Source: a virus
IMG/VR virus record: IMGVR_UViG_3300028925_003959
DNA: 28,330 nucleotides
Strand: one strand, 5' to 3'
Shown: positions 2,004 to 21,608 of the stretch, one piece after another
Position numbering within the stretch: position 1 is the stretch's first letter
Layout: the number at the start of each line of letters is the position of its first letter
The notes under the pieces: generated by a model
Told to the model about the DNA's origin: nothing
What the model saw: the letters and a program-made list of their open reading frames with translations, nothing else
Database searches by the model: none
Made by a program: the position numbers and the translations under genes

Positions 2004-2198
2004 TTATGACTTATTAGAATCAGCAATACCTTGGCCGATTACTAGTGCGACAAGTGAATAAAGAATGTTTTGTGATACTTCAGGGTCTATTCCCCAATTG
2101 TCGCTTAACAGTTGTACTATAATACCTACAATTGTGTAAAGGAATTTACGACTTGATACCATCTTTTTAATCGTTTGTAAAATTAGCCATTTTTTCAT
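2004..2198 (-). CDS. Small two-TM membrane protein, holin-like candidate
   Basis: Hydrophobic segments are FLYTIVGIIVQLL and ILYSLVALVIGQGI. It lies directly downstream of the putative cell-wall hydrolase. The ATG at 2196..2198 overlaps that gene by 32 nt. An alternative ATG at 2160..2162 (MVSSRKF...) lies 4 nt after its stop. Confidence 0.5.
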   Translation of the reverse strand: MKKWLILQTIKKMVSSRKFLYTIVGIIVQLLSDNWGIDPEVSQNILYSLVALVIGQGIADSNKS

Positions 2199-2616
2199 AG
2201 TCTTTTTTTTTAATTATTAAGTTAATATTTGTGCCGCCTAAATTAAGTATTTCTTTTATAAGTAAGTCCATTGCAAGTCTAGAGTTATTAACAACATCTT
2301 GTTGGCTACCTAGTCCTACTAGAATACAACCGCTTGTATCTTTAGCTGTATTGCCTCTGTGAAATAGTATCCAATCCCTATTAGGAACGTCTTGTATTAA
2401 TAGATGTAAATAGTCCCTTGTTGCTGATTCTCTAGCTAGTCTTAGTCTTACAGGGTATTCACCTTCAGGAATGCAACTTATAGTCCTTTGATTATCTAAA
2501 TAAGGGTTTTCTAATGTGTCGCATATCCTTTCTCCATTTATAAAGAGTTCACCAACCGTAGACTCCTCAGTAAATGTATCCCTAATTAATAATAAATTAA
2601 TCTTGTCTTTCTTCAA
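2167..2616 (-). CDS. DUF5675-like protein with a His/Cys motif; putative peptidoglycan hydrolase (endolysin candidate)
   Basis: The pattern GELFINGERICDTLENP...IPEGEYPV...FHRGNTAKDTSGCILVG matches my recollection of the DUF5675 consensus. The H...(S/T)xGC arrangement recalls YkuD-type L,D-peptidases. The only usable start is TTG at 2614..2616: there is an in-frame TGA two codons upstream and no ATG before about residue 116. Two small membrane-protein ORFs flank it. Confidence 0.5.
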   Translation of the reverse strand: MKKDKINLLLIRDTFTEESTVGELFINGERICDTLENPYLDNQRTISCIPEGEYPVRLRLARESATRDYLHLLIQDVPNRDWILFHRGNTAKDTSGCILVGLGSQQDVVNNSRLAMDLLIKEILNLGGTNINLIIKKKDYEKMANFTND

Positions 2617-7196: not shown

Positions 7197-8111
7197 TTAC
7201 GATACAAATACTACATCTGCACCAATTCCAACTTGAGTTCCTCCCGTGAATCTTGCGATTAAACGAGTATTCAAACTTCCTACGTGAGATTGGTCAAGTA
7301 ATTGAATGTTAGTTGAGTCTGAAATTAAATCAGTCCCAAAGAATAAGTTAGACTTTTCAGCACAAACTAACTTATCGTCTTCTGCACCGTTGCATACTGC
7401 AAGTTTTATTCCTTCAAAAACTGCATCATAATCACCATTCATTGAATAAGCATTTACATAACCTAAAGCTGAAATAGCTGAGATGTATAATCTGTAAGAC
7501 TTTGGACTCATATAGATGTAAAGGTCTTCTTTCGTATAAACGTTAGAAGGAATAGCTGCTGTTGCTGCTTGTAAGTTAGCGATAATGTTTGCTGCTGTGA
7601 ACGCTGTTCCTGCTCCACCGTCATTAGCTACATCAATTACTGTTGCATCTACTACAAGTCTTCCTACTGCTGCTGTAGTCAATCCTGTAAAAGAACCTCC
7701 TGTTGCATCATTTCCTGACCATATAGCGTTTTCAACTCCTTGAGAAATTCTACCTGCTAAGTGAGAAATTAAGTAGTCGTCAAATGATGCCGGTGCCGGT
7801 GCTCCTGCTCCTGCTCTCATCTCTAAACTTTCCCAAGAATCCAATAAGTTTTTTGAACAAATTTCCATATTAACTTGTAGGTCTTTTGGAGTGATGATTG
7901 CTTCAGTAAGAACTAATGTTCCTGCTGTTGTGAAATCGCACGTGCTGTCCGCCATCTCTGAACCGGATTCCATTTTCTGAATTACTGCTTTATACTTCAC
8001 GTTTTCCATTGAAGTCATAAAGTTTAAAGAGTTAGCTTCTTTTAAAGCTGCTGATACGTAAAAGCCGGCTGCTTTCCCCGCGAACGTGCTAGTTACTGTT
8101 GGTAATGCCAT
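7197..8111 (-). CDS. Major capsid protein (HK97-fold type)
   Basis: 304 aa, preceded by an acidic scaffold-like gene. Composition and length are typical of HK97-like capsid proteins. It follows the XkdF-like protease and scaffold block. Confidence 0.7.
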   Translation of the reverse strand: MALPTVTSTFAGKAAGFYVSAALKEANSLNFMTSMENVKYKAVIQKMESGSEMADSTCDFTTAGTLVLTEAIITPKDLQVNMEICSKNLLDSWESLEMRAGAGAPAPASFDDYLISHLAGRISQGVENAIWSGNDATGGSFTGLTTAAVGRLVVDATVIDVANDGGAGTAFTAANIIANLQAATAAIPSNVYTKEDLYIYMSPKSYRLYISAISALGYVNAYSMNGDYDAVFEGIKLAVCNGAEDDKLVCAEKSNLFFGTDLISDSTNIQLLDQSHVGSLNTRLIARFTGGTQVGIGADVVFVS

Positions 8112-8125
8112 AATTGTTTATTTTT

Positions 8126-8770
8126 TTAGTTATTTAAGTTATATAAGAATCGCTCTTGTGAGGTCATCATTTTTAATTGTTTCTTGCTAAGAGATGTTTT
8201 CTCAGAGCTAAATTTATTTGTATCTAAAGGTGCTGATGCAGGTTGTGCTGCTAACTCAGTCTTTAGTCTATCGTTTTCTGCTTGTAAGTCTTCCATTGAG
8301 AACTCAACTACTTCTGTAGTCTTAATAGATTTTGGAGTTGTACCTCTAACCTCTACATCTTCTTCAACTGACATTTCTTCAACTTCTTCCTCTACTTCTT
8401 TTTCTTCTCCTTTAAGACTAGCTACTGCATCTTCTAAGTTTTGGATTCTTTTCTCCATACCTGCCCAATCAGCAACGTCAGCTTCTTCTGCCATTTCAGC
8501 TTCTTCTTCAACGTCTTCTGCACCAAAAACTTCATCAACAATACCTTCTTCAGAAACTGAAAAAGATTCTCCTGATTCTAATACGTAATTTCCAACAGGT
8601 AAAAGCATAACAGAACCATCTTCAGTAAGAACTGAGATATCTACTCCTGCAATTAATTCGTCAGCTGTAGAAGTGATAATTGTACCATCTTCTAATTTAG
8701 CTTGAAAAGCCATTAAGACTTCTTCTTTGTCAAGTCCAAGTGCTACTAATATTTGATTTTTTAAATCCAT
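8126..8770 (-). CDS. Scaffolding protein candidate (highly acidic)
   Basis: Glu/Asp-rich core (EDVEEEAEMAEEADV, EEKEVEEEVEEMSVEEDVEV) plus coiled-coil-like segments (RIQNLEDAVASLK, ENDRLKTELA). It lies immediately upstream of the capsid gene. Confidence 0.6.
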   Translation of the reverse strand: MDLKNQILVALGLDKEEVLMAFQAKLEDGTIITSTADELIAGVDISVLTEDGSVMLLPVGNYVLESGESFSVSEEGIVDEVFGAEDVEEEAEMAEEADVADWAGMEKRIQNLEDAVASLKGEEKEVEEEVEEMSVEEDVEVRGTTPKSIKTTEVVEFSMEDLQAENDRLKTELAAQPASAPLDTNKFSSEKTSLSKKQLKMMTSQERFLYNLNN

Positions 8771-8801
8771 AATCTTTTTATAGTTTTGTTTTTAGTTCTG
8801 T

Positions 8802-8813
8802 TATATAATAGAA
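8802..8813 (-). promoter_or_regulatory. Conserved late motif copy 4: TTCTATTATATA, 31 nt upstream of ATG 8770
   Basis: Exact 12-mer in the divergent intergenic region 8771..8873. Confidence 0.55.
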
Positions 8814-8839
8814 TAGTTATTGTTCTGTTTGGTTTTTGT

Positions 8840-8869
8840 TTTGTTATTTGATTTATTTTGTTATATTTG
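8840..8869 (+). promoter_or_regulatory. Host-type (TTTG / TAnnTTTG) promoter for the lone plus-strand ORF
   Basis: TATATTTG at 8862..8869 fits TAnnTTTG exactly. TTTG at 8840..8843 lies 18 nt upstream. The ATG at 8874 follows 4 nt after the box and a second ATG is at 8883. Confidence 0.5.
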
Positions 8870-8873
8870 CACT

Positions 8874-9080
8874 ATGAAAAAAATGTATTTAGTAGGAGAA
8901 GTAAACCAACAGCAGACTAATTGGGATTTTTGCGGTATTTATTCTACTGAAAAACTTGCCCTTAAAAGGTGTGTAACTGAAAATCATTTTTTAGCTAGAG
9001 TTGAATTAGATTATTATGTGCCTATTGAAAAGAGCAAGTTCAAGTATTCCTACTATCCTTTGCTAGAAGATAAGCCTTAA
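8874..9080 (+). CDS. Only plus-strand gene: small hypothetical protein (68 aa, MKKMYLVGEVNQQQTNWDF...), moron-like
   Basis: The track ORF 8820..9080 begins at a TTG, and I trim it to the first ATG (8874). It has its own promoter-like signal. Its stop (9078..9080) is 2 nt from the stop (9083..9085) of the convergent minus-strand gene. No family recognised. Confidence 0.5.
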   Translation: MKKMYLVGEVNQQQTNWDFCGIYSTEKLALKRCVTENHFLARVELDYYVPIEKSKFKYSYYPLLEDKP

Positions 9081-9082
9081 GT

Positions 9083-9517
9083 TTATTTTATTTGTGAAGC
9101 TTTAGATACTATCTTCATTCTAGCATCTTCTAATTGTTTTCTTACTTTTAATCCTTCAGAATAAAATTTATTAGCAGAAGCAATACTTTTTTGACTTGAA
9201 GGATTAATACCTAATTCTTTTAAAGCTTTCTCCATTTTAGAAACTATATCCCCTAGTTCAACCACAACTTTATTTGCTGTCCTTTCGTGTATTTTCATAG
9301 TTGCAACTGCACCATCTACACTACCTAATATTGATAATAGATTTTTACTTTCCTTTACAGATTCAGCACTTTCCTTTATTACTTGTTCTACTTTTTTTCT
9401 TGCTTTCTCTACATCATCACCTAATCCCAACTCAACCTTTTCAGACTTCAGTTCAGTTTTAGATTCTTGCATTAGCTTATTTAAAGCACTTATTATTTGT
9501 TTGTTCGTTGGTTTCAT
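9083..9517 (-). CDS. Coiled-coil head-module protein, paralog of 10414..10872 and of the C-terminus of 9527..10414
   Basis: Shared landmarks are KVELGLGDDVEKA and ALKELGINPS. Compare RIELGLANDIKST / SKELGIDVND in 10414..10872 and KVDLSINDDINKP / AKELGVSSD in the C-terminus of 9527..10414. Confidence 0.6.
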   Translation of the reverse strand: MKPTNKQIISALNKLMQESKTELKSEKVELGLGDDVEKARKKVEQVIKESAESVKESKNLLSILGSVDGAVATMKIHERTANKVVVELGDIVSKMEKALKELGINPSSQKSIASANKFYSEGLKVRKQLEDARMKIVSKASQIK

Positions 9518-9526
9518 ATTATACGT

Positions 9527-10414
9527 TTAAAGTAATTTTTGTATTTGTTTTACTATATTAGAAGACTCCTTAGCTCCTGTTTCTGCTTCTGTTAATTTTG
9601 AAGAAAATAATTTAACTATATCTGAACTAACTCCTAATTCTTTAGCTTTTGTAACTCCTATTGCAGCTTCTTTTGCAGCTTTATTGAAATCACTAGCAGC
9701 ACTATCAGCTACACCTGCTGCATCTCTTAGTCCGTTTTTAATATTAGCAAAAGCAGTTCTAGCTTTTTCTAGTGGCTTATTTATGTCGTCATTAATACTT
9801 AAATCAACCTTCTGAACACTTAGCAACTCTTTTATTGCATTCCTTACTTCTTCGTCTGTAAATTCTTTCTTCTTGTTCATTTGTTCAAATTTATTAGTAA
9901 AATAGCCTTCTATTGAAAGACCTTTAAGTTCTCCGTTTTTTATCTTAGACCAAATTTCATCATTTGAAATAGATAACTTAACCATCCAAGTTCCCACAGG
10001 AAGCGAATAGCCATATAAAGTAGACTTATCTAATTTAGTGTCTTCTATAATCCAAGACTCAACTGTAAGTATTCCTGAAACTCTATCTTGATGTTGGTAT
10101 GTCGCCTTATGGTGATTGTTATGCTTTAAATACAATTCAGAAGCCTTCTGTACTGTTTCTTTTGAAAAGTAAACATAGTAGTCCGAATCGGTGTTTGGGT
10201 CGTGTCTAAAGATTTGCTTGTTAGGAATCAAAGCAGGAGAAATTAACATTCTCTTTTCTTCATCAACCTTTGCAAATGTTAAGTTGTTTTTCTCTTTACC
10301 AAAGAATACAAAGTCTTGCTCAATAGCAGGACTAGTTACTAAGCTAATAGCATCAATAGCTAATTCTTCAGAATCATCTGCAATTACAAGTTCTACTATT
10401 TTAGTTGCTTTCAT
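9527..10414 (-). CDS. XkdF-like putative prohead protease with a C-terminal coiled-coil module
   Basis: Segment-by-segment resemblance to B. subtilis PBSX XkdF as I recall it: ISLVTSPAIEQDFVFFGK, EKRMLISPALIPN, TVESWIIE and GTWMVKLSISNDEIWSKIKNGELKGLSIEG. Confidence 0.7.
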   Translation of the reverse strand: MKATKIVELVIADDSEELAIDAISLVTSPAIEQDFVFFGKEKNNLTFAKVDEEKRMLISPALIPNKQIFRHDPNTDSDYYVYFSKETVQKASELYLKHNNHHKATYQHQDRVSGILTVESWIIEDTKLDKSTLYGYSLPVGTWMVKLSISNDEIWSKIKNGELKGLSIEGYFTNKFEQMNKKKEFTDEEVRNAIKELLSVQKVDLSINDDINKPLEKARTAFANIKNGLRDAAGVADSAASDFNKAAKEAAIGVTKAKELGVSSDIVKLFSSKLTEAETGAKESSNIVKQIQKLL

Positions 10415-10872
10415 TATAGGTTAGCTTGTAGTTTTGCTATAGCACCTAAAGTATCATCAGCAGCAGCCTTATATCCATCAGCATTATCTACTAAATCTTC
10501 TAGATTTCGATAACCAGGAATATCATTAACATCTATACCTAATTCTTTAGATAATTTCTCTGCTGTTCTCAATAAGTCTATAGCTTTATTTTCAAGGCCA
10601 TCTACAGGCTTGAATTTACCTTCTAAGTCATTATAATTTCTATCAAGAGCTTTAGATGCTAAATCCAATTCAGTTCTTACTTCCTCAACTATATCGGCAG
10701 CTTCTTTTTGAGAAGCATTTAGTTCAGTTAAAGCTTTTTCTAAAGCATCCTCTGTTGATTTTATATCATTTGCTAGCCCTAATTCAATTCTTGTAACTTT
10801 ATTTAAATTAAATTTTGCAACTGCTTCTGTATATTCTTTGTAGGTTTTTCCGAATGGTGTTGGCTTGTTCAT
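10414..10872 (-). CDS. Coiled-coil head-module protein (paralog family, see 9083..9517)
   Basis: 152 aa, helical and acidic. It carries the RIELGLANDIKST and LSKELGIDVND landmarks. ATG at 10870..10872, 22 nt downstream of the conserved 12-mer. Confidence 0.6.
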   Translation of the reverse strand: MNKPTPFGKTYKEYTEAVAKFNLNKVTRIELGLANDIKSTEDALEKALTELNASQKEAADIVEEVRTELDLASKALDRNYNDLEGKFKPVDGLENKAIDLLRTAEKLSKELGIDVNDIPGYRNLEDLVDNADGYKAAADDTLGAIAKLQANL

Positions 10873-10894
10873 AGTTTTTATTTAAGGTTTGTAA

Positions 10895-10906
10895 TATATA
10901 ATAGAA
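10895..10906 (-). promoter_or_regulatory. Conserved late motif copy 3: TTCTATTATATA, 22 nt upstream of ATG 10872
   Basis: Exact 12-mer in the 54-nt gap after the tape-measure-like gene. Confidence 0.55.
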
Positions 10907-10926
10907 ATTAAGTTCCTTTGTTTGAT

Positions 10927-12576
10927 TTATATTGTTGCCCTTCTTCTAATGTTTGCTAATTGATTCTGACTGTTACTCATCTCGTCAGTTACTACATAAG
11001 CCTTAGTAGCTTCAGGGGCTACTCCTCCTGATATATCAAAAGCTCCTGACATCATTTGAGGTGATGGTGTTTGTGGTGCTACTGGTGCAGAACCTCCTCC
11101 TCCTTCACCTCCTGGAACGTCTGTTGCTAATATAGTCTTTACATTATTAAGTCCTGCTGCTATTACTGCTGCTCCTGTTACGAATCCTACAGTACCACCT
11201 TGAGCAAAGGCTTTATTAGCTCCTACATAAGTATCTATTACGGCACTTGCTACGGCTAAAGCTTTGTTATCTCCTGCTAATGCACTTAATGCTCCTGCAA
11301 GTCCTGAGAACGCTTCTAACTGAGCATTCATATTAGCCTTAACTACTTCAGTCTTTTGTTTCTCATATTGTTTAGTAATAGCTAGAGTTTTCACTCCTGC
11401 CTTATCAGCCATTGCTACTTTTAAGTCATAAGCGTCCTCAAGTTCTTGTAATTCTTTTTGTAACCCTGAAAGACCTTCTGCTCTTATTCCCTTTTGTGTT
11501 TCAGCTAATTCTTTTTCTAAACTTACTTGATTTGTTTTTTGTTCTGACAACTGACCTGTAATAGTTTCTTCAAGTTCAAGTTGTGCATTCTGAGCTTCCA
11601 TTAAAGCTAACCTATTTTCATCATTTCCGTTCTGTTGTACTGCTAAAGCTGCTGCTGTTACTTGTTTCTGTATTTGGTCAGACTGAAGTTTCTGTTGTTC
11701 TTCTAATGATTTTTTTAAGTCTTTATTGGCTTGTATCCTTTCAGCAAAAGTCTTTGTTTCATCATCTCTAATTTGTCTAAGTAATTCTGCCTCTCTTAGT
11801 TTTTCAGCGTTTAACTTTGCAAATTCTGCTTGAGCAAATTTAGCCGCTTTAACTGCTGCTGTTGTAGCCTCTGCTTGTTCATAATTAGCTTTTATTGAAA
11901 TCTTACTTATACCCTCAGAAGCCTTTTCATATATATCTCCTATCTCACCTATTGCATCCCCTATATTGTTTACAATATCTTTTCCTGCATCTACAGCTGC
12001 TATTGCTACTTCTGCTAAGTTCGTTTTAGTTAATTTTATTTCTTCTCTAAGTTCTGCAATTTTACCTTTATCACCACCACCCAATGCACTATCTTCCCAA
12101 GCTAAAGTTAATTGTTGTATTCCTAATTTAAGTCCGTAAAAAGCAAGCTTCAAAGGAGTTAATGCAAGCGTAACTATTCCAGACAAAACTTTTCCTAGTC
12201 CATCAAATCGGTCTGAGCTTTCCGTTACCCAAGAAACAACGTCTGTTAATACTGTAACAACTTGATTGAAAGTAGTAGAAATAGTAGACATTACTGTTTC
12301 CATTAAGTCCATAGCTTTTTGATTCCTTTCAACTGCTTCTTTAAGTGCTACAAATAAAGCAATAATCAATCCTATTCCTGCTGCCTTTAAAGCTAATCCT
12401 ACTCCTTTAATTGCAGTACCCATTCCTTTAAAACCTTTTGAAGCTGTCTTAGTTGCTCCATCAACTTTTTTAGTTTCATCAGCTAATTTTCCTACTGACT
12501 TAGTAGCACTATCAATACCTTTTGATACCTCGCCAATATTTGACTTAACTTCCATTTCTAATACTTCCTTTGCCAT
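10927..12576 (-). CDS. Tape-measure-like protein (or internal/ejection protein)
   Basis: 549 aa with long Ala/Lys/Glu/Gln coiled-coil stretches and two hydrophobic segments (GVGLALKAAGIGLIIALFVAL, LSGIVTLALTPLKLAFYGL). The C-terminus is Gly-rich (GGEGGGGSAPVAPQ). Confidence 0.55.
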   Translation of the reverse strand: MAKEVLEMEVKSNIGEVSKGIDSATKSVGKLADETKKVDGATKTASKGFKGMGTAIKGVGLALKAAGIGLIIALFVALKEAVERNQKAMDLMETVMSTISTTFNQVVTVLTDVVSWVTESSDRFDGLGKVLSGIVTLALTPLKLAFYGLKLGIQQLTLAWEDSALGGGDKGKIAELREEIKLTKTNLAEVAIAAVDAGKDIVNNIGDAIGEIGDIYEKASEGISKISIKANYEQAEATTAAVKAAKFAQAEFAKLNAEKLREAELLRQIRDDETKTFAERIQANKDLKKSLEEQQKLQSDQIQKQVTAAALAVQQNGNDENRLALMEAQNAQLELEETITGQLSEQKTNQVSLEKELAETQKGIRAEGLSGLQKELQELEDAYDLKVAMADKAGVKTLAITKQYEKQKTEVVKANMNAQLEAFSGLAGALSALAGDNKALAVASAVIDTYVGANKAFAQGGTVGFVTGAAVIAAGLNNVKTILATDVPGGEGGGGSAPVAPQTPSPQMMSGAFDISGGVAPEATKAYVVTDEMSNSQNQLANIRRRATI

Positions 12577-12587
12577 AGTTTTATTTT

Positions 12588-13445
12588 TTAAAGTGCTACT
12601 CCTGTTTTAATTTGTGTCATTCTTATTGTAGTTGCCCACATTAAATCTCTGTTATTAGCTCCTTTTACTGTCTGAACAAGATTAGTACCTGAAACAGATA
12701 TATCACTAATCCATCCTGCTGTAGAACCTGAATTTGCTATTATAACTCTTGTCTTGTCTATACTTAGCACTCCTGATTTATTAATAGCAACCCCTGTTTC
12801 TATAAATGCTTTGAAATCACCAACTGCTCCTGCTCCTGTTCCACCTATTCTTACAGCTACAGTTTCAGTTTGGAAAGCTACTATCGTGTTATCAGGAATA
12901 ACAAAATAACTATCCGTTGTATTATTTAAGTAACTATCTACTACACTATTATCTGTAGTTTCAGTTCCATATAATACAGTAATTGATTGTCTTTCACCTA
13001 AAGAGTCCGTTCCTGAATTACCCCCCAAGACTATAGAATTATCAGCTGTAGCCTCTCCTAAAGTGCCTGATACGTTAGCATTGTTTACTCCATTAGCTAT
13101 TTCGTTTTGATTACCTGTTATTATGCTATTTCTTGAGAATCCTCTTACTGTGTTATTCTCGCCCATTACTAAGGTATTGTTAGTACCTGTTTGAGTTGAA
13201 TTACCTGTTCCGAAAGTCTTATTGTTTTCGTTAGCTACTGCTCTGTTTAGATTTGTATTGTATCTAAATGTTGAGCAAGTACCTGTTACTTTATTATATG
13301 TATATCCGTAAGCCTCACATTGTAATTGATTAGGGATTACGTCATTTTTTCCGTCAGTAAATGTTACTGTTCCAAGTGCTGAAATTGAAGCAGGTTTTAC
13401 TGTGAATCCTGTTATGTATGGTATTGATATCGTAGGTGCTGCCAT
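12588..13445 (-). CDS. Tail fibre / receptor-binding protein candidate with short Asn/Gly repeats
   Basis: Repeating N-x-(I/V/L)-x-x-G units: NNTLVMGENNTVRG, NSIITGNQNEIANG, NNANVSGTLG, NSIVLGGNSG. They resemble YadA-head or fibre-type beta-roll repeats. Confidence 0.45.
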   Translation of the reverse strand: MAAPTISIPYITGFTVKPASISALGTVTFTDGKNDVIPNQLQCEAYGYTYNKVTGTCSTFRYNTNLNRAVANENNKTFGTGNSTQTGTNNTLVMGENNTVRGFSRNSIITGNQNEIANGVNNANVSGTLGEATADNSIVLGGNSGTDSLGERQSITVLYGTETTDNSVVDSYLNNTTDSYFVIPDNTIVAFQTETVAVRIGGTGAGAVGDFKAFIETGVAINKSGVLSIDKTRVIIANSGSTAGWISDISVSGTNLVQTVKGANNRDLMWATTIRMTQIKTGVAL

Positions 13446-16132
13446 TATGGTATAAGTATAAATTCAACTGTTGCTAAGTCGTTAGGCTTGTAGTCTATTT
13501 TGTTCACTCTAAAGACTCTATTTTTAATAAAGACTCTATCGTTAAACTTGAACGTATTAATATCAGCAGGACTAAGATTTACTTTAAGAGTCATAGTCCT
13601 AGTATTTGGATTGTAAAGCTCTGAGTAGTAAGGAAGCCAATATAAATTGAACAAGTTATTTACTGTAGAAACTTGATTACCTAGTAGCTGACATTCGCCA
13701 AAGTGGAAATCTCTTGCTGCTGAAATTGATAATCCTGAATCTTTAATATGACTAAACTGTAAGTAGTTATATTCGTTAGAACTTACTACACCGTTCTGTT
13801 CAGGTATATAATAAGAAGTTCCTGTAGATTTTATTCCGTTATTATACATAATTCTAGGACTATTTTCAAACCCTTCTTCAATATCATTATTTATAGCATA
13901 AATAGCAGGAGTTATAAATGAAGGATATTGACTCATTAAAGCTTTAACTATTGTAGCTGCAAAAGGTTCTGCAATTATTTCTTTTTCACCATCCAATATG
14001 TTAAATTCATTACCTGAATTAAACTTCTTACTTCCGTATAAATGACCGCCTACTTGATTCTTATAATTATTAAAAGCATAATCATCATCATCTTCAACAA
14101 ACTTAAATATTGTCTTTTTATTAAGGTCTGTTAAAGGTGTTAATTTTATTTCTGAAACATCTATCTTATCAGTCCAATCGTGCTGAATTCCTCTATTAGC
14201 TAAAGTTGCTCCTGCTGTTGCTGTTGGTATAAATACATCAGTATAAGGTTCTATTAAAATATTGTTAGGATTATCTTCATCTACTAAAGTTACTAAGTTA
14301 AACATAGTAATAAGACCTTTTAAGAAATCCCATTGTCCTAGTTCTCCTCTTAGGTTTTGTAGTAGTGAATCAGTTGTTGCTAATCCCTGACCTATACTAG
14401 CTATTATATTATCATTGATATAAGGATATTGCCAATAAGAATTTAATGAATCTGCCTTATATTCTACTTGTAGCGTGTCCCCTTGTTGTAAAAGTACATT
14501 TTGAGAAATATCTAATGATACATATGCAGTACTATTACTATAAATAGAACCATACACATTTAAAACATTTCCTGCACTATCTTTGTGTGTTAGTCTAATT
14601 GTAGCACCCCACCCTGAAACTTGACCAATAGCTACGTGAGTTTCTAAATTATATTGCGTATTATTATTTAGTGCTTCAAATCTATGATTTACACTATCAT
14701 AATTTAAGTCTGCTGAGAAATTACTAACATCATTTAATTGAAAATTTTGGTATGTAGTTGTAGCATAAATAACAGGTGGTACAAATGACGCTAAATTATA
14801 ATATCCAATAGTTGGAGTTGTACTAGTGTCATTAGCACCCCAATTAAAGTCCATAAATAACTTCTTGAAGTCTGTAGTATCAAAGAAAGCTGATTCATAA
14901 GTGAAGTCTGTTGCTTCAAATATTCTATCTACTAAATACTTTATATTAATGAAAGGTCTGAATATTTGCTCTAAAGATGTGTACTGAGGATTGCCATCTG
15001 TAGGTCCTGCACCTCCTGAAGGGTTATCTGCTACAATAATCTGATGATCCCAATCAACAAATGGATATTTAACTGTGCTATAAGCATCTCTAAATCCTGA
15101 AGTACTTGGATTTGTATAAGCTATTCCTGTTGTTGCATCATTCCAACTATTCTTAATTTGTGTTCTATTATATTCGTGTTCAATTTCTGTAAAGTCTAAA
15201 TCTCTAAATACTCTATCTTGTAAGGTATCTGCTAAAGCTATGACCTCTGAATATAAATTCACATTATAACTTATCTCGCCTTCTTTATCTGTTACGTCTA
15301 GCATTCTTAAATAGCCTTCAAATAGAATAAAGCCATCTTGTTTTAAAACGCATTTAGTCTTTTTATAAGGGTTAAAGATTAGTCCGTCATTTTCCCTTGT
15401 TACTTCAAATATAGCATTGAATATTTTATTGTTTCTTTTAGTAGAAGGTAAGTTAAAAGCCTTTGAATACGACTGTACTTTCTCAGCTACGTTCTTAAAG
15501 TCATCTACACTAAGAGTCAAAGGTAAGTCTTCATCTTCATAAAGGTCGCATATTATTTGTCCATCTTCTAGTAATTGAATAGCTCCAGAAGGAGAAATTC
15601 CTGCTGCCGTTACTCCTATTGTATTTATTTGAATAAGATTTGCAATAGATATATATTTAGAGTCTATTAATATAGTATCTTGTGTTGAGTTTGCTGTAAA
15701 TTGTAAGGTCTGAGTTCCTGAAGATAACGAGTGTGTACTTTGTAAAGTCGTTCCTGAAAATACTAATAGCCTTGCTGCACCAACTAATACACCTACATTT
15801 ACTTCTACATCATAAACAGCACCAATAGTAAGATTTGAAAGTTTCTGAATGATTCCGTTTTGTTCTCCTGCTCCTGAAGCTATCCTTAAAAAACTTCCTG
15901 TTTCATATACGTTTGTACTATCTGTATCATAATAACGATACCAAGTATTTACCGCCATTATTGAATTGTAGTAGCTAATTGCTCCCTGTGCTAATGTAGT
16001 AGCTATTGCAGTATTTGCTGAAGCGTTTACATTATTAAAGTTTATACCATCTACAAAAAATTGATTAGAAGTATTACTAGAGTTTGTTAAACCGTCATAG
16101 CTCTGAGGATATACTATTAATTGAACACTCAT
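13445..16132 (-). CDS. Large tail/baseplate protein (895 aa), possible tail-associated or host-recognition protein
   Basis: It is the largest ORF, beta-rich and Asn/Thr/Ser-rich, and is coupled by TAATG overlaps to both neighbours. Function is inferred from size and neighbourhood only. Confidence 0.35.
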   Translation of the reverse strand: MSVQLIVYPQSYDGLTNSSNTSNQFFVDGINFNNVNASANTAIATTLAQGAISYYNSIMAVNTWYRYYDTDSTNVYETGSFLRIASGAGEQNGIIQKLSNLTIGAVYDVEVNVGVLVGAARLLVFSGTTLQSTHSLSSGTQTLQFTANSTQDTILIDSKYISIANLIQINTIGVTAAGISPSGAIQLLEDGQIICDLYEDEDLPLTLSVDDFKNVAEKVQSYSKAFNLPSTKRNNKIFNAIFEVTRENDGLIFNPYKKTKCVLKQDGFILFEGYLRMLDVTDKEGEISYNVNLYSEVIALADTLQDRVFRDLDFTEIEHEYNRTQIKNSWNDATTGIAYTNPSTSGFRDAYSTVKYPFVDWDHQIIVADNPSGGAGPTDGNPQYTSLEQIFRPFINIKYLVDRIFEATDFTYESAFFDTTDFKKLFMDFNWGANDTSTTPTIGYYNLASFVPPVIYATTTYQNFQLNDVSNFSADLNYDSVNHRFEALNNNTQYNLETHVAIGQVSGWGATIRLTHKDSAGNVLNVYGSIYSNSTAYVSLDISQNVLLQQGDTLQVEYKADSLNSYWQYPYINDNIIASIGQGLATTDSLLQNLRGELGQWDFLKGLITMFNLVTLVDEDNPNNILIEPYTDVFIPTATAGATLANRGIQHDWTDKIDVSEIKLTPLTDLNKKTIFKFVEDDDDYAFNNYKNQVGGHLYGSKKFNSGNEFNILDGEKEIIAEPFAATIVKALMSQYPSFITPAIYAINNDIEEGFENSPRIMYNNGIKSTGTSYYIPEQNGVVSSNEYNYLQFSHIKDSGLSISAARDFHFGECQLLGNQVSTVNNLFNLYWLPYYSELYNPNTRTMTLKVNLSPADINTFKFNDRVFIKNRVFRVNKIDYKPNDLATVEFILIP

Positions 16133-17532
16133 TATACTGCTTGGGTTCTAAGTGTCTTTGACTTTTCTACTTCAAAAGTGTACTGCATAAGCTTGTCATT
16201 AGCTACTGTCTTTTTAGTATAGTTAGAAGTTGTAAGTCTTACAGGTATTACATATTGATTCAATGCAGAATCTGTTGCATCATCTTTAAAGCCTTCTAAG
16301 ATATAAACTTCAGGACTATTTATAAGTTCTTCAAACCACTCGGACTCGGATTCACTTACAAAGTCTGTATTCATAGTTATTTTCTCAGTAGCGTTTACTC
16401 TAAAGGATTTTTTACCACCTTTAAAGCTATCTAGTCTGTAAGACTTTTCATTCCAACTACCTGCAAGCTGTTGGTATGTACTTCCTTTTGTTGAGATAGT
16501 CTTACTAGACTTCATTTTAAAAGTGTAGTAATCCCAACCACCCCATTGATTAAGCCAAGTAAGTCTTACAGACTCAAATCCTTTTTGATTAGGACAGTTT
16601 ATATTAATAGTTATTCTATCAGAAATAGTTTGTCCTGTACTATTATGGGCTGATATTACATAGTAGCTTAAAGTAGGAATAGCAGCATTGAAGTCGCTAC
16701 TCCAATTCCTTAAATTTGCAGGAAAGCAACCAAGAAACATCATTTGTCTATTTATATGAGCACTCCAAACATCAAATCCACCATCTGTATCTAAGTTTTT
16801 TATAAGTATTGTTGAACCTATAGGTACTCCATCTGAATCATACATATTTACTTTGAACTGAATAAGAGTAGTGTATGGTACATTGCTTGATAATGGTGTT
16901 GATAAAAAGGGTAAAGTTCCATAGTCTTCTATATTAGCATATTGAGTTCTTGGTGCATTAGTTAAAAACCTTTGTCCTGAAGCTCCACCTCCTAACTGAA
17001 AAAGTTTAGTATTAAAGCCAAAATTATTACCTGATAAAATTATCTCATCAGTGTATTTTAAGTAACCATTGAATACTTTGTACAAGTCAGAGTTATCTTG
17101 AGTTCCATCAACAACTAAATCTCCTGATGCGTCTATGTATTCTGTAGTAAATTTTACAACTAAGTATCTTATTACTTCTGTATTCCTTGCATACTTATCA
17201 ATTAAATGTATTCCGAAAGGCACGTAAGTAGAATATATAGTCTTAAAAGCTGACCACTTATAAGCCTTATTCTGAGCATTAACAAAACTTTCAATTATAG
17301 GTCTGAAGTCAAACATTCCAACTCCTGCGTTGTTTGGAGTAGTCTTGAAAGTACCTACTACATCATTTACAGTAGATGGATTCGGAGGAGTACCATCACT
17401 TATATGAACTTCAGCTATAAACTTAACCCCTGTAAAAGTAGATACTATCGGAGTATTACCTACTGTAAACATTACTTCTTGCCCTACAGGTAAAGTATCG
17501 TATAAAGGATGCTGTGTTATTGTTGTTGCCAT
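16132..17532 (-). CDS. Tail/baseplate structural protein (466 aa)
   Basis: Long beta-rich ORF in the coupled structural block. No motif recognised. Confidence 0.3.
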   Translation of the reverse strand: MATTITQHPLYDTLPVGQEVMFTVGNTPIVSTFTGVKFIAEVHISDGTPPNPSTVNDVVGTFKTTPNNAGVGMFDFRPIIESFVNAQNKAYKWSAFKTIYSTYVPFGIHLIDKYARNTEVIRYLVVKFTTEYIDASGDLVVDGTQDNSDLYKVFNGYLKYTDEIILSGNNFGFNTKLFQLGGGASGQRFLTNAPRTQYANIEDYGTLPFLSTPLSSNVPYTTLIQFKVNMYDSDGVPIGSTILIKNLDTDGGFDVWSAHINRQMMFLGCFPANLRNWSSDFNAAIPTLSYYVISAHNSTGQTISDRITININCPNQKGFESVRLTWLNQWGGWDYYTFKMKSSKTISTKGSTYQQLAGSWNEKSYRLDSFKGGKKSFRVNATEKITMNTDFVSESESEWFEELINSPEVYILEGFKDDATDSALNQYVIPVRLTTSNYTKKTVANDKLMQYTFEVEKSKTLRTQAV

Positions 17533-18068
17533 TATTTAATTGTTGTTATGCTATTAATTATATCTTCTTTTACACTGCCTAGTAAGTCTTTTCCGAACTG
17601 CTTTAAACCAAGCCCTAAAGGTTTTTGAAAGAAGCTTATCCCTTGTATTCCTTTACGCCCTATACTTCTAGCAATTAAAAAGGTTATTGATTTTCTACTC
17701 ATAAACTTTCCGCTTGCATCTCTTGGAGCTATTCCTTTTCTAACAACCCACTTATCTAAAGCCTTACTTGGTGGCTGTGAGTGTCCTTTACTATTTTTAT
17801 AACTATAAGGAGTTTTAATTGCTTTCCCTTTATAGTCTTTAAATGTTCTTTTGGTCTTAGTTCCTGAAACTCCTTTGTCTACAAATTGTCCATAACTTGA
17901 CATATAGAATTGTACTGTAAAACCGTCTGCTGAAGTAATTACTTTAAACGAGATGGAATCTTCTAACTTAGTCTTATCTCCTTTTTTATAATTAAGAGTA
18001 GTTTTAGACTGAGCAACCACTTGCCGTCCAAAGCTTTCTAAGTACCTTTCTATATTGTCAGTTTTCAC
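17532..18068 (-). CDS. Basic virion protein (178 aa), possible neck/tail-completion protein
   Basis: Lys/Arg-rich ORF coupled by a 1-nt overlap on both sides. The function is only a positional guess. Confidence 0.3.
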   Translation of the reverse strand: MKTDNIERYLESFGRQVVAQSKTTLNYKKGDKTKLEDSISFKVITSADGFTVQFYMSSYGQFVDKGVSGTKTKRTFKDYKGKAIKTPYSYKNSKGHSQPPSKALDKWVVRKGIAPRDASGKFMSRKSITFLIARSIGRKGIQGISFFQKPLGLGLKQFGKDLLGSVKEDIINSITTIK

Positions 18069-18514
18069 TACTCTACTCCTACGAATACTTCAACTCTAGC
18101 TGTAACAGCTGTTGTTGGTTGTACTTGTAAAGAAGCTAAGTCTAACATAGTTCCAAAAGTAGGAGCGCCAACTTCACCTAAAGCAATTACATCTCCTGAA
18201 TAAAGAATGTGTGAGCCTCCTGCTCTTATAGTTACAGTATAACTTGAAGTAGTAGTCTGAACTGCTAACTCAATGTCTACAGCCGTTTCTAAGTTTGTTA
18301 CTCTAACGTATTTAGTCCTATCAACATCAATAGCTCCTGGAGAAGTTGAAGGTAATGTATCAAAGACCGCTACAGTAGTTACTACACTTGCTGTGCAGGT
18401 TACTATCCTTTCAAAGACGTCATTAATACCTGTTGTTGTTACTGAATTAACAGAGCCTCTTAAACTTCCGTTAAGTGTTACTGTTTCTGAAATTGTTGTT
18501 ACTAAGTCTGCCAT
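18068..18514 (-). CDS. Beta-rich structural protein (148 aa)
   Basis: Thr/Val-rich ORF in the structural block. No motif recognised. Confidence 0.3.
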   Translation of the reverse strand: MADLVTTISETVTLNGSLRGSVNSVTTTGINDVFERIVTCTASVVTTVAVFDTLPSTSPGAIDVDRTKYVRVTNLETAVDIELAVQTTTSSYTVTIRAGGSHILYSGDVIALGEVGAPTFGTMLDLASLQVQPTTAVTARVEVFVGVE

Positions 18515-18518
18515 AATT

Positions 18519-18590
18519 TTATAAATTAATTGTTATTTTAAATTTTTTCCATCCTATCATTATTTCTAGTTTCCAAATCTTAAACTTCAT
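18519..18590 (-). CDS. Candidate micro-ORF (23 aa, MKFKIWKLEIMIGWKKFKITINL)
   Basis: My own translation. The ATG (18588..18590) overlaps the upstream TAA (18590..18592) as TAATG, the coupling used at many real junctions here. Its stop (18519..18521) lies 4 nt before the next ATG (18514), so it exactly fills the 75-nt gap. Confidence 0.25.
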   Translation of the reverse strand: MKFKIWKLEIMIGWKKFKITINL

Positions 18591-19141
18591 TAATACCCTG
18601 CTCCATTTGAACTGACAGGAATATCGCAAGTCTGAAAGTCGTTCTGTACTAATACTCCAATATTAAATACCCAACCACAACAAAGATTGTCAAACCTTTC
18701 AGAGAACGGCTCTATAGTGAATTGGTCTTGCGTAAAGTATATCGGTTGATTAATATCATTCACCCCTTCTAAAGACTGCCTAGAACTATGCCTTAGCATT
18801 CCTATAAAGTCAGTACATACTTGAAGTGTTTCATTTAAGACATCTTGTTCGTTATCTAAAGTCTTTACTAACTTAGTGAAATCAGCTGAAGCATTGTTTG
18901 TAGTCCATTCAGTTCTTTCTGTTACCATATCCATAATGAAGATTTGGAAGTTAAAGACAAGCTGACTGTCTCCAGTAGTTACATTTGTAGGGTTGATATG
19001 AAGTAAAGGAAACTTAGTATTCTTATCTCCTAAATCTATCTGCCAAATATCCCCTACAGAAGTTGTACTTATTTGCTCGTGGTATTCCCCTAGTCTTAAA
19101 AGAGTATTAACGACATTATTATAGCTTTTATTTTTAACCAT
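18590..19141 (-). CDS. Structural protein (183 aa), possible neck/connector component
   Basis: ORF with ATG at 19139..19141. The -1 frame ORF from upstream ends 8 nt inside it. No motif recognised. Confidence 0.3.
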   Translation of the reverse strand: MVKNKSYNNVVNTLLRLGEYHEQISTTSVGDIWQIDLGDKNTKFPLLHINPTNVTTGDSQLVFNFQIFIMDMVTERTEWTTNNASADFTKLVKTLDNEQDVLNETLQVCTDFIGMLRHSSRQSLEGVNDINQPIYFTQDQFTIEPFSERFDNLCCGWVFNIGVLVQNDFQTCDIPVSSNGAGY

Positions 19142-19909
19142 TTCTTTTTACTTTATTTTGTGAGTTCAAATCTGTTTCATAACTTAACCAAGTCAGGCAC
19201 TCTAACAAGTTGAGCTTTGTAATACTTTCTAATTTACTAATATCTTCACCGCACAACCTGTGCATTACTCCGAACCATCCCCACTTACTGGCAAAGTCTT
19301 CACTAGCTATTGCACTTTCGTTTCCTTCAGCCGAGTTATCGAAAATGATAGCAAAGTCTCGGACAATACCTTCCCTAAAGTGTAAAAAAAAACTAAAGCA
19401 CTTTGAACTTGTTCTGCCGACATCTGTTTCATTTCTTCTGCTCTGAGCCGAATATCACCATCATACGGTTCAATAATATATAGTGTATCACTTTTCTTTA
19501 TTTTGATAGGTCTATAAAGTACCGACATCAATTCAGGAAGGTTCTTATCTATTCCATTCTTTATAAACTGCTCAATGTCTGCATACTCTCCTAATGTAAT
19601 TTCTGAAAGGTCAGGATGAAAAGCGTATTCAACTTCATTGATAGTTATAATCCTTTTAAGCTTAGTGTCTTGCTTAGCTTGAAGTTCTCCTATCTTTGAC
19701 ATAATGACTGCTACGTCTGATAAAGCTAGTTCCTTAACCAACCGTTTAGGAATGTCAGATAGTGCTGCTAATGTTGCTTCAGCTTCTTCAGTCTTAGTTC
19801 CTGTTTCAAAGTCAATAATTTTTAACCAAGTTTCTAATGTAACATCACTCCAATTGTTAATTAGACTGAACGATTCTACTTTACCATCTTTTTTAATTTT
19901 GACTTTCAT
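19134..19909 (-). CDS. Predicted -1 frameshift fusion product (about 258 aa): residues 1-175 of the 200-aa ORF plus 83 aa from the -1 frame
   Basis: The -1 frame is open from 19454 to the TAA at 19134..19136, with no ATG before 19265. It covers the otherwise gene-free gap 19142..19306 and translates to a normal-looking sequence: LHFREGIVRDFAIIFDNSAEGNESAIASEDFASKWGWFGVMHRLCGEDISKLESITKLNLLECLTWLSYETDLNSQNKVKRNG. Confidence 0.45.
19307..19909 (-). CDS. Zero-frame product (200 aa) of a candidate frameshift pair; tail-assembly-chaperone-like by architecture
   Basis: ATG at 19907..19909, 4 nt after the conserved 12-mer. It contains GTT TTT TTT TAC (a U9 run) 25 codons before its TAG. Confidence 0.6.
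   Translation of the reverse strand: MKVKIKKDGKVESFSLINNWSDVTLETWLKIIDFETGTKTEEAEATLAALSDIPKRLVKELALSDVAVIMSKIGELQAKQDTKLKRIITINEVEYAFHPDLSEITLGEYADIEQFIKNGIDKNLPELMSVLYRPIKIKKSDTLYIIEPYDGDIRLRAEEMKQMSAEQVQSALVFFYTLGKVLSETLLSFSITRLKETKVQ
19384..19392 (-). other. U9 slippery run (heptamer U_UUU_UUU in the zero frame)
   Basis: The plus strand has nine consecutive A at 19384..19392. The zero frame reads GTT TTT TTT TAC. Confidence 0.5.
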
Positions 19910-19913
19910 ACAC

Positions 19914-19925
19914 TATATAATAGAA
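19914..19925 (-). promoter_or_regulatory. Conserved late motif copy 2: TTCTATTATATA, 4 nt upstream of ATG 19909
   Basis: Exact 12-mer in the 45-nt gap after TerL. Confidence 0.55.
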
Positions 19926-19954
19926 ATAAGTTGTTTTTAGTTTAACGATTTTTT

Positions 19955-21265
19955 TTACTGCACATAATACCTTCCCACGTTCTTATCTATCTCATAATAC
20001 ATTCGCATTGCTAAAGCGTCAGCATAATCAGGAGAACGCCCTAGAATAGCCTTAACAGTATCTTTAGGAATTATCTGTAGTTTGTTATCTTTATCTGCAT
20101 CTTTCATTCTTACTTGTTCTAGTTCTTCTGTTATTGTATTCTTAGTATTAACGTCTGAACAACTTATACCAATTTGTCCTTTGTTTATTTCATCTGCTAA
20201 CTTGTAATAACATTGAGTCTTTAAGTTCTGATAGTTCTCTCCTTTTAAAGCTCTAGCATTATTTGTAAATCCTTGACAACGTAAGTAATCTTTAACTCCA
20301 CCACCAACTCCATCCTCATCTACTATGATATTCCTTAAAGCTACTTGATTTTCTTGTTGTAGTTTCTTAATCTCGTCCACAACATCATTTACAGCCGATT
20401 TAAGGATAGTTCTCACATAAGTAAGGTGTAAGCCTTCCCATAACATTATAACTGTCTTATCGCTTCCAAATCGTGCAACATCACAACTGATATACTTTTC
20501 TCCTGTTATTCCTTTTTGACTAAACATTCCCATAATAGAATTGTAATCTATAAGACTGTCATCAGTTGCATCATATTCCCAATTACCGAATAGAAGTCTT
20601 TGCTTACTTAGTTCATCTAATTGAGATAGCTGAGTTTCATAGTGCTTAGAGATGTAGTTGTTATCCACCACTAAAGACTGAATAAACTTTCTGTAAGGTT
20701 TTATTGTATTGTCTTGTGCAGGTCTGTAATACTCTGAATAAACCCAATTCTTAGCAGGGTTGCAAGTCATAAGCATCTTAGGTATTAAGCCGTTCTCATC
20801 TAACTTATATCTTAGTCTTGATGCTACTACGTTCTTAGCCTTTTCAGTAATCTGATTAGCCTCATCTATGAAAGCTCCTGTTATTTCTAGTGAACCTAGA
20901 CTATCAAAGTTTCTGTCTGAAGGGTATAAGAACAAGTCCTTTAGTATTATCTCAGAACCATTGTAAAAGGTTATCACATTACTTGAACCATTAAACGTGT
21001 AGTCTTTAATAGCTTTTAAGTTCCACTCGGTGCATACTTCAAAGAATGTATTTAGTGTAGTCTTTTTTAAAGCATCTAACTTTGACCTTCCCATTAAGTA
21101 CCTAGTCTTTGGATATGTTAGGCACATAGTAATTAAGTAGCTACAACCTACCCAAGACTTACCTCCTCCTGCTGCTCCTCCAAATAAAACCTCTTTAGTC
21201 TTATTGTCTAATAGATACTTTAAGCACTCTTTTTGTTTAGGTGTAAATTCAGGATTAATCTCCAA
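19955..21265 (-). CDS. terL: Terminase large subunit
   Basis: Walker A FGGAAGGGKSW and Walker B-like AFIDEANQ, with a C-terminal nuclease-type region (VDEDGVGGG). 436 aa. It overlaps the upstream TerS gene by 11 nt. Confidence 0.9.
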   Translation of the reverse strand: MEINPEFTPKQKECLKYLLDNKTKEVLFGGAAGGGKSWVGCSYLITMCLTYPKTRYLMGRSKLDALKKTTLNTFFEVCTEWNLKAIKDYTFNGSSNVITFYNGSEIILKDLFLYPSDRNFDSLGSLEITGAFIDEANQITEKAKNVVASRLRYKLDENGLIPKMLMTCNPAKNWVYSEYYRPAQDNTIKPYRKFIQSLVVDNNYISKHYETQLSQLDELSKQRLLFGNWEYDATDDSLIDYNSIMGMFSQKGITGEKYISCDVARFGSDKTVIMLWEGLHLTYVRTILKSAVNDVVDEIKKLQQENQVALRNIIVDEDGVGGGVKDYLRCQGFTNNARALKGENYQNLKTQCYYKLADEINKGQIGISCSDVNTKNTITEELEQVRMKDADKDNKLQIIPKDTVKAILGRSPDYADALAMRMYYEIDKNVGRYYVQ

Positions 21266-21608
21266 GATTTATATTTATTTTAATTCTTTCATCTCCTGAA
21301 GTTAAATCTATTTCTTGCTTCTCATTATAACCACGCTTACGTCCTCTTGTTCTTAGGAAGAAAGTTGTAGCTGTTGTATTACCTTCCTTGATTTGTTTCT
21401 TTAGACTTGTTTCAGCAAAGTCAATAAACTTACTATCAATATTATCTACTGCGTTCTTGTATTCTTCATCTTCATTCATCCAAGCATAATGTCGGCTTCT
21501 TGTTACCTCTGCTTTCTCACAAGCTTCAGTTACTATACCTAGTGAAGTTTCTAGTGCAGCTAGTAGCTTCTTTTTACCCTCCTGTGTCCTCTTTTGTTCT
21601 GTTTCCAT
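21255..21608 (-). CDS. terS: Terminase small subunit candidate (HTH)
   Basis: 117 aa, immediately upstream of and overlapping TerL. It has an HTH-like segment LGIVTEACEKAEVTRSRHYAWMNEDEEYKNAV. Confidence 0.6.
   Translation of the reverse strand: METEQKRTQEGKKKLLAALETSLGIVTEACEKAEVTRSRHYAWMNEDEEYKNAVDNIDSKFIDFAETSLKKQIKEGNTTATTFFLRTRGRKRGYNEKQEIDLTSGDERIKININLGD

Follow-up and report, generated by a model that had tools for sequence, protein, structure and literature searches.

A length-conserved T9 run links two reading frames of a phage assembly-region gene: comparative evidence for recoding and a candidate role for transcriptional slippage

The viral DNA of IMG/VR record IMGVR_UViG_3300028925_003959 (28,330 nucleotides, analyzed over its whole length and referred to here as the window) carries, next to the gene for the terminase large subunit (TerL), an open reading frame (ORF) of 200 amino acids (aa) that we call gene X. 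Close to its 3' end lies a run of nine T residues (T9, or U9 in the mRNA), and the -1 frame is open from this run into the following gene. Two questions arise: whether the -1 frame is a genuine part of gene X and, if it is, which machine brings about the change of frame. Recoding of some kind at T9 is very likely real, as judged from the relatives of the gene, and the comparative data point to RNA polymerase as the main slipping machine, a reading to which we assign a probability of about 0.55. Positions are numbered over the entire stretch, the genes around gene X are all encoded on the minus strand, and the features of the locus are collected in Table 1.

Table 1. Gene X, its candidate slip site and the adjoining genes in the window
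Feature	Positions	Strand	Basis
Gene X, frame 0, short product of 200 aa	19307..19909	-	ORF and translation
T9 homopolymer (U9 in the mRNA), candidate slip site, read GTT TTT TTT TAC in frame 0	19384..19392	-	Sequence
-1-frame extension, 83 codons and stop (LHFREG…KVKRNG)	19134..19385	-	Open frame, conserved, homology
Dual-coding overlap: 0-frame tail (YTLGKVLSETLLSFSITRLKETKVQ, then stop) over the first 25 codons of the -1 extension	19307..19383	-	Substitution tests
Next gene, 183 aa, no assigned function	18590..19141	-	ORF
TerL, directly upstream of gene X	19955..21265	-	phrog_2, E = 3e-34; Pfam Terminase_6N, E = 2e-9

Decoding in frame 0 would yield the 200-aa protein, which ends at 19307, with 25 sense codons between T9 and the stop. 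A net change to the -1 frame at T9 (19392..19384) would produce a protein of 258 aa, join(19909..19385, 19385..19134), that shares the first 175 residues and takes the following 83 from the -1 frame. The conceptual junction is SALVFF/LHFREG, contained in the predicted peptide SALVFFLHFREGIVR, and the tail peptide of the short product is VLSETLLSFSITR. The -1 frame is free of stops from 19454 to a TAA at 19136..19134, and no ATG, GTG or TTG occurs in it before the ATG at 19265. At its end the long product overlaps the 183-aa gene by 8 nt (ATGGTTAA), the ATG of that gene being at 19141, and the apparent 165-nt gap after gene X vanishes when the -1 frame is taken as coding. A preliminary description, made from the letters of the sequence alone, had placed the ORF, the U9 run, the -1 frame (19454-19134), the internal ATG and the 8-nt overlap at these same positions, all of which hold.

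The -1-frame stop density in the window's own genes is 0.127 per codon, and 83 open -1 codons after T9 are expected by chance with P ~1e-5. A/T runs of at least nine bases are in themselves unremarkable in a window of 33% GC (0.2-0.65 expected for an A run on the plus strand; three 9-base runs observed). Within the window, TTT constitutes 71% of Phe codons and GTT 35% of Val codons, which gives P = 0.18 for GTT TTT TTT where Val-Phe-Phe is encoded, and TTTTTT is used at only one of the nine other Phe-Phe pairs. The T9 run is not accounted for by codon bias.

A protein search with the conceptual 258-aa fusion as query matched 4,069 proteins. The 200-aa protein itself is identical to a public-collection entry (P0008), and dozens of the listed relatives with 199-200 aa share 84-96% identity with it. 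Close relatives in general (84-100% identity) are nearly all 199-200 aa long and match the query only up to the junction; a handful of proteins of 257-261 aa span it completely. The relatives were grouped into 1,621 clusters at 50% identity, and 112 representatives were examined. The short type, which breaks at Phe-Phe, accounts for 69 of these; of the long ones, 26 have Phe-Phe at the junction and 16 lack a Phe run. Phe-Phe is present at the junction in ~85% of the representatives, and ~15% encode the long form only and have no slip site; the 16 long proteins lacking the Phe run form essentially one branch in a rough neighbor-joining tree.

At the nucleotide level, 237 related loci require the shift, with a run of T9 in 228 and T10 in nine, and none shorter. 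The run is the sole invariant nucleotide element of the locus alignment. All 80 IMG/VR loci fetched with the fusion need the shift and have the T run at the identical place, a 0-frame tail of 24-25 codons, and a -1 frame that is open and conserved over 80-85 codons. Three arrangements occur among these close loci: T9 read as GTT TTT TTT TAY, T10 read as CTT TTT TTT TTC, and T9 read as ATG TTT TTT TTT GCT. In the T10 loci a compensating base keeps the shift necessary. In a second clade, ~26% identical to the window protein, all 79 usable loci have T9 and need the shift. Metagenomes scanned with a profile built from diverse short-type proteins provided 72 parsable loci, every one of which requires the shift (T9 in 69, T10 in three), with varied flanking bases and two registers. 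Three contigs assigned to metagenome-assembled genomes (MAGs) also carry gene X with T9 and need the shift, one of them at 47.6% GC. The codon registers seen are GTT TTT TTT TNN, NNT TTT TTT TTG and ATG TTT TTT TTT, flanked by G, A or C before the run and by A, C or G after it. In every shift-requiring relative the -1 frame encodes the conserved C-terminal domain. As the interruption is conserved across clades, it is not an error. The open -1 frame and the slippery run, whose retention in relatives the preliminary description had proposed as a check, are kept in all 237 loci. IMG/VR scans with P0163 and P0186 as queries gave no confirmed loci.

Megablast of the region against GenBank phages found no match. 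With protein queries, the only GenBank-phage matches are the cultured Nonlabens (Persicivirga) phages P12024S and P12024L (~29% protein identity, tblastn E ~5e-5). Their gene also follows TerL and contains CTT TTT TTT TAT CAT TTA GGG, and the -1 frame is open from T9 into a separately annotated gene that is homologous to the window's C-terminal domain (P12024S_39, L083 9351-9518, and P12024L_41, L084 3411-3578; 55 aa each). In P12024S the halves carry the gene numbers 38 and 39; GenBank lists them as separate hypothetical proteins in both phages, and each record should have one joined coding sequence here. The junction peptide predicted for P12024S reads …ILFFLSFRER…. An antisense ORF of 38 aa has been called just downstream of P12024S gene 39 and overlaps its last 20 nt.

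Some of the contigs found in these searches have features of their own. Two contain a pair of gene X copies ~30 kb apart: IMGVR_UViG_3300043447_000083 (33.6 kb; L145 and L156, which differ, with 73% and 70% identity to the query) and Ga0208793_1000087 (58.9 kb; L203 and L211). Both look like concatemeric or chimeric assemblies of ~30-kb genomes. The three MAG contigs (L255-L257, 9.7-36 kb) are binned to MAGs titled Pseudooceanicola, Parvibaculum and Christensenellaceae, which belong to three phyla; either they are mis-binned or the hosts of the family reach far beyond Bacteroidota. We rejected the MAG titles as a guide to host range, since the contigs are phage-genome-sized and probably mis-binned.

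The preliminary description had also remarked that the -1 translation looks like real protein. This impression is borne out: the segment is conserved in relatives and homologous to the C-terminal half of uninterrupted proteins. Relatives without the Phe run (P0155, P0185, P0190, P0276, P0351 and others) are single ORFs of 235-274 aa that align with the window fusion across the junction, where they read, for example, …EYFLKFRKEILEKYAGLF… and …PEFIAFRENFMDTYGNLF…, and through the C-terminal 'KWGW' domain as well. In their DNA (GAG TTT ATA GCT TTT AGG GAA), both alternative frames stop immediately. The junction of the predicted fusion, …VFFL.FRE…, is what rare in-frame variants and distant uninterrupted homologues encode, in agreement with the fusion of ~258 aa and the SALVFF/LHFREG junction proposed at the outset. 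Third-position variability peaks in frame 0 upstream of the run and in frame -1 downstream of it. The AlphaFold (AF2) model of the 258-aa fusion has a mean predicted local distance difference test score (pLDDT) of 80.2 and a predicted template modeling score of 0.73, and its helix 165-185 (block pLDDT 77-90) crosses the junction at 175/176. According to the model, the -1 extension would complete this helix and add the C-terminal 'KWGW' helical domain of the long product. As read from the relatives, the long form is the ancestral full-length protein of the gene X family.

The long proteins that do have Phe-Phe at the junction are of a different kind. Those checkable in DNA (four proteins on five contigs) are all +1 homopolymer variants of interrupted genes: L081 and L171 carry T10, L252 carries T11 of the T10 subtype, and L253 and L254, from Tara Illumina assemblies, carry T10. 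L171, L252, L253 and L254 retain an alternative frame that is open over 24-26 codons and encodes a typical 0-frame tail. A fifth long Phe-Phe protein, P0146, was checked through matching loci rather than its own contig; two IMG/VR loci at 100% identity carry T9 and need the shift. The database proteins of 257-261 aa were considered as proof of an uninterrupted ancestral gene in close relatives and rejected, the DNA being that of T10/T11 +1 variants. None of the ~231 loci fetched without regard to frame is such a variant. Their presence among the cluster representatives is, on our assumption, probably because clustering keeps the longest member. In L081 and L082 (JGI 3300075401 and 3300072551) the neighboring genes are split (118 + 179 aa; 142 + 29 aa; 51 + 98 + 95 aa); in L082 TerL is split too, and gene X has further indels that rejoin the frames. 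These splits suggest homopolymer or indel errors typical of long-read assemblies, and the two contigs are therefore unfit as evidence for uninterrupted genes.

If the long form is the older one, is the short form simply its remnant? Within the overlap, substitutions silent in the -1 frame are tolerated much less often than in single-coding sequence on either side, both in the window's clade (22/44 versus 179/239, p = 0.0018) and in the second clade (52/113 versus 162/188, p = 2e-13), and the entropy of four-fold sites falls from 0.8-1.8 to ~0.3-0.4. In the second clade, frame-0-silent changes are also favored over doubly non-synonymous ones (odds ratio (OR) 2.2, p = 0.002; control OR 1.26, p = 0.23). 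The 0-frame tail extends over 18-43 codons in 70 diverse loci (median 32), with a stop expected every ~9.5 codons (density 0.105 per codon); that of the second clade reaches 61 codons (P ~1e-3). The AF2 model of the 200-aa form has a pLDDT of 84.7 and its tail continues the same helix, so that in the models the 25-residue tail would replace the C-terminal helical domain while extending the helix. The sequences suggest selection for the interrupted state, with both products probably wanted, because the overlap is constrained, the tails are open, and long-only genomes are rare though T9 to T10 changes must arise often.

That the run is conserved, that the -1 frame is conserved and has homologues, and that the overlap is under extra constraint can be read from the sequences directly; production of the two products, their ratio and the machine that slips are what we infer from them. 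In the mechanism that we favor, the weak rU:dA hybrid on the A9 template would slip back by one position within RNA polymerase, and a fraction of the mRNAs would gain a tenth U, which would bring the downstream frame into phase (GUU UUU UUU UUA CAC…). The change needed is always equivalent to a one-base insertion. RNA polymerase insertions are concentrated in A/T runs, involve single bases and rise exponentially with run length, as found by genome-wide transcript sequencing (PMC5574713), and slippage at A/T homopolymers is established for cellular and insertion sequence (IS) genes, with T9, A9 and A10 runs as recognized sites, for example in the type III secretion genes of Shigella (PMC5009743). 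The run at the gene X site is about as long as the RNA:DNA hybrid, at least nine, in each of the 237 loci. It is at least nine in all three codon registers, where a ribosomal heptamer needs only seven, and its length is kept regardless of register and flanking bases. The positions of the run around the heptamer are not free to vary in these loci: synonymous TTC, GTN or CTN codons are never used at the run, and GTT TTT TTC, which would leave the heptamer intact in the common register, is never seen. RNA structure provides no further signal. The 111 nt downstream of the run in the window fold no better than shuffled sequences (z = -0.01), z scores for the downstream folding of 31 diverse loci are mostly near 0 (two outliers, -3.4 and -2.8), and RNAalifold finds 0 consensus pairs upstream. 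A small hairpin that abuts the run in some clades was considered as a stimulator and rejected; neither the window nor the Nonlabens phages have it, and it exhibits no covariation. Polymerase slippage is favored because the run is at least nine in every register and the homopolymer is the only conserved signal. Transcriptional slippage, mentioned as an aside in the preliminary description, is thus the reading that the comparative data prefer.

The principal competitor is programmed -1 ribosomal frameshifting, in which the P- and A-site tRNA-Phe would slip by one base on U_UUU_UUU of a faithful U9 mRNA. It would give an identical protein and may contribute; as the main mechanism we regard it as possible but rather unlikely. 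A perfect in-frame X_XXY_YYZ heptamer is found in every register observed, and the short/long pair, with its slip site close to where the short ORF ends, matches phage cassettes of the G/GT type (PMC5009743). However, neither side of the run has a conserved stimulator, the run stays nine long when the register moves, and seven or eight T residues are never seen in the 237 loci, which span 26-40% protein identity. Furthermore, the host of the cultured relative is a member of Bacteroidota, and Bacteroidia ribosomes work without Shine-Dalgarno pairing (PMC10798248). Several points weigh against our preference for the polymerase and for two wanted products. U_UUU_UUU is a legitimate ribosomal heptamer in every register, a longer run might just raise ribosomal slipping without a stimulator, and the argument from run length is comparative rather than mechanistic. 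The loci sampled come mostly from a few abundant marine and freshwater clades. The allele counts in the selection tests are phylogenetically non-independent, the window's clade offers few sites (its frame-0-silent test is not significant, p = 0.52), and the lowered synonymous variation could stem from a nucleic-acid element instead of the short protein. We can offer no reason why two forms should be needed. Finally, polymerase and ribosome would give the same protein and could coexist, and sequence alone cannot separate them.

Three further explanations remain, and we consider each of them very improbable. The least improbable of the three is phase variation of the DNA, in which replication slippage would mix T9 (short-only) and T10 (long-only) genomes and a minority would supply the long protein, for instance during co-infection. 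In-frame +1 variants do occur in Illumina metagenome assemblies, one Tara contig in several samples, but they make up <1% of all sequences seen, the run keeps to 9-10 without drift or longer runs, and co-infection is an unlikely requirement for a structural-module protein that distant relatives conserve at full length. A homopolymer miscall, by which the real genome would have T10 and a single 258-aa gene, has practically no standing. Public contigs L081, L171, L252, L253 and L254 have an in-frame run, and L081 and L082 come from assemblies with fragmented neighboring genes; yet the shift is needed in ~231 of ~231 independently assembled loci from many projects and in two cultured phage genomes, the T10 lineages with the compensating base still require it, and the alternative-frame tail is kept open and constrained. 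Equally improbable is the absence of any recoding, with a C-terminal domain that is dispensable in a truncated gene or made separately by internal initiation. P12024S and P12024L do have the 55-aa ORF annotated with its own ATG, and the window has the ATG at 19265. This codon, however, is preceded by no ATG, GTG or TTG in the -1 frame and falls after the conserved F..KWGWFG motif, and the -1 segment right after the run (L.FRE..….F) is equally conserved and lacks a start codon in other clades. In the AF2 model that segment completes a helix whose first half is encoded in frame 0, and purifying selection acts throughout the -1 frame.

What is the protein? Gene X belongs to the virion-assembly region. 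In the direction of transcription, the order is terminase small subunit (TerS), TerL, gene X, unknowns of 183, 148, 178, 466, 895 and 285 aa, a 549-aa gene, an unknown of 152 aa, the head protease, unknowns of 144 and 214 aa, a probable capsid protein of 304 aa, unknowns of 187 and 383 aa, and the portal. The 549-aa gene, seven genes downstream of gene X, is the only tape-measure-like match, and the label 'tape-measure-like' that it had been given corresponds to a partial PHROG match (E = 4e-9). In uninterrupted relatives the gene X homologue and a 181-aa partner lie on the opposite strand, between head and tail blocks. The structural block as a whole (3364-21608) has an unusual order, with TerS/TerL and eight or nine unknown, presumably tail, genes followed by the head protease, a scaffold-like gene, the probable capsid gene, and the portal last (639 aa, phrog_33693, E = 7e-66).

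Pfam and NCBIfam scans of gene X, its relatives and its neighbors gave no functional match for gene X. Its N-terminal domain has a single PHROG match, phrog_32199, of unknown function (E = 6.9e-10), which is matched by 17 of 32 family members (best E = 2.2e-16) and is the direct sequence family of this domain. The profile has 175 positions and presumably includes P12024S gp38 (175 aa); it corresponds to the short reading, and the long form is represented neither there nor in GenBank annotation. A PDB profile search with the gene X family returned 0 matches, Foldseek against the PDB nothing below E = 3.5, and Foldseek against BFVD only uncharacterized phage proteins, P12024S gp38 among them. 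An alignment of the family profile with lambda gpGT by hhalign has a probability of 0.35%. The comparison with tail-assembly-chaperone families by profile and structure that the preliminary description had recommended thus yielded no significant match in Pfam, NCBIfam or the PDB (by sequence or by Foldseek), or against gpGT.

The tail-assembly-chaperone frameshift is conserved in double-stranded DNA (dsDNA) tailed phages, with lambda G/GT as the type case (Xu, Hendrix & Duda; reviewed in PMC5009743). Gene X resembles it in having a single 5' start, two predicted products with a common N-terminal domain, a start-less second ORF that overlaps the first in the -1 frame, and a slip site that precedes the short ORF's stop by a few codons. 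Both lie in a virion-assembly block, and in both the arrangement is conserved across very divergent sequences. In contrast to lambda, gene X uses a T9/T10 homopolymer instead of a heptamer such as G GGA AAG, is not located between the major tail (tube) and tape-measure genes, has no sequence or fold similarity to G/GT, and belongs to a family of which part has no short form. The likeness to G/GT drawn by the preliminary description therefore stands for the short/long architecture and fails for chaperone identity, on sequence, fold and gene order alike. That gene X is a divergent analogue of the chaperone pair, which is compatible with either slipping mechanism, strikes us as unlikely. The shared architecture and the place in the assembly block speak for it, and no other candidate chaperone pair was recognized in the window. 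Further hints are at noise level: Pfam Phage_TAC_7 at E = 0.07 and phrog_166 ('tail protein'), each in one of 32 members, and, at rank 50 of the BFVD matches (E = 0.07), a 'tail assembly chaperone'. For T4-like phages, chaperones fused into a single gene have been proposed (reference 44 of PMC10885494). On the other side, there is no significant similarity in sequence or fold to any chaperone family or solved structure, gene X follows TerL and adjoins neither the tube nor the tape-measure gene, the uninterrupted copies are on the opposite strand between head and tail blocks, and a 200/258-aa pair with a 175-aa α/β N-domain is unlike gpG.

Two further morphogenesis genes, the P2 chaperone pair E/E+E' (slip site T TTT TTG, Pfam Phage_TAC_7) and T7 capsid 10A/10B, are established ribosomal events on motifs of 6-7 bases. 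They share with gene X a U-rich slip site and a minor longer product, which in gene X is a prediction, but have no homology to it, the Phage_TAC_7 match being noise. Among the cases of programmed transcriptional slippage, Thermus thermophilus dnaX has a run of A9 and Shigella mxiE one of T9. These genes, with spa13, further type III secretion genes and IS elements (PMC5009743), have in common with gene X an A/T homopolymer of 9-10, one added base that restores the frame, no need of a ribosomal stimulator, and two C-terminal variants per gene. They differ in being cellular or IS genes of single lineages, whereas the gene X site spans >60 representative clusters at <50% identity, its slippage is deduced from sequence, and its hosts are possibly diverse. 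Citrobacter rodentium tssM is reported to make two length variants by transcriptional frameshifting on a poly-A run (PMC4256274). There too a homopolymer interrupts a gene whose norm is full length, and slippage gives a truncated and a full-length protein; tssM is, however, a case from one species, and the interruption of gene X is ancient, with an alternative-frame tail that is itself constrained. The kind of mechanism is therefore already known. What is new is the gene family, the bare, length-locked T9, how widely it occurs, and that a phage assembly gene probably uses polymerase slippage. No publication mentioning this T9 site turned up in literature searches.

A broader proposal, to be taken as tentative and short of even odds, is that the phage protein family relies on RNA polymerase slippage at a maintained T9 as its normal route to two isoforms of an assembly-module protein. 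The signal would then work unchanged in marine and other metagenome phages with potentially diverse hosts (MAG bins hint at Proteobacteria and Firmicutes in addition to the known Bacteroidota host), and the site would represent the first widespread, ancient programmed transcriptional slippage in dsDNA phage morphogenesis and a new short/long chaperone-like pair unrelated to G/GT. If polymerase slippage is indeed at work, programmed transcriptional slippage would be a mainstream expression strategy of tailed-phage structural genes, and gene callers or frameshift predictors that have learned from tail-chaperone heptamers would overlook an entire class of sites. In thousands of public phage contigs, and in the P12024S and P12024L reference genomes, the locus is annotated as a truncated gene with a gap or an orphan mini-ORF; the correct annotation is a joined protein of 230-260 aa beside the short one. 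The site is also a natural experiment on recoding, a bare homopolymer with no helper structure that keeps a length of 9-10 across proteins 25-30% identical, and a cultured host-phage pair with it, Nonlabens (Persicivirga) sp. IMCC12024 and P12024S, already exists.

The two other 9-base runs of the window were considered as slip sites and rejected; both are A-rich leaders just 5' of start codons. A similar A-rich intergenic leader lies next to gene X, where an A8 run on the coding strand (19949-19956) begins inside the TerL stop (…CAG TAA AAA AAA TCG…), 40 nt 5' of the gene X ATG. The first of the two 9-base runs, A9 on the coding minus strand at 2203-2211, is 3 nt 5' of the ATG of a ~66-aa minus-strand ORF starting at ~2198, and we read it as an A-rich translation leader and not as a slip site. 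The ORF has two hydrophobic segments (MKKWLILQ…FLYTIVGIIVQLL…ILYSLVALVIGQGI), looks holin-like, and overlaps the 3' end of a 149-aa ORF (2167..2616, minus strand) that is endolysin-like from its sequence. The second, A9 on the minus strand at 7138-7146, lies 8 nt 5' of an ATG at 7129 and is preceded by a GC-rich hairpin (AGTGAGGGGGTAAAACCCTTCACT) at ~7150-7180, after the 304-aa probable capsid gene; the region 7138-7180 has the look of a hairpin for termination or processing with an A-rich leader after it.

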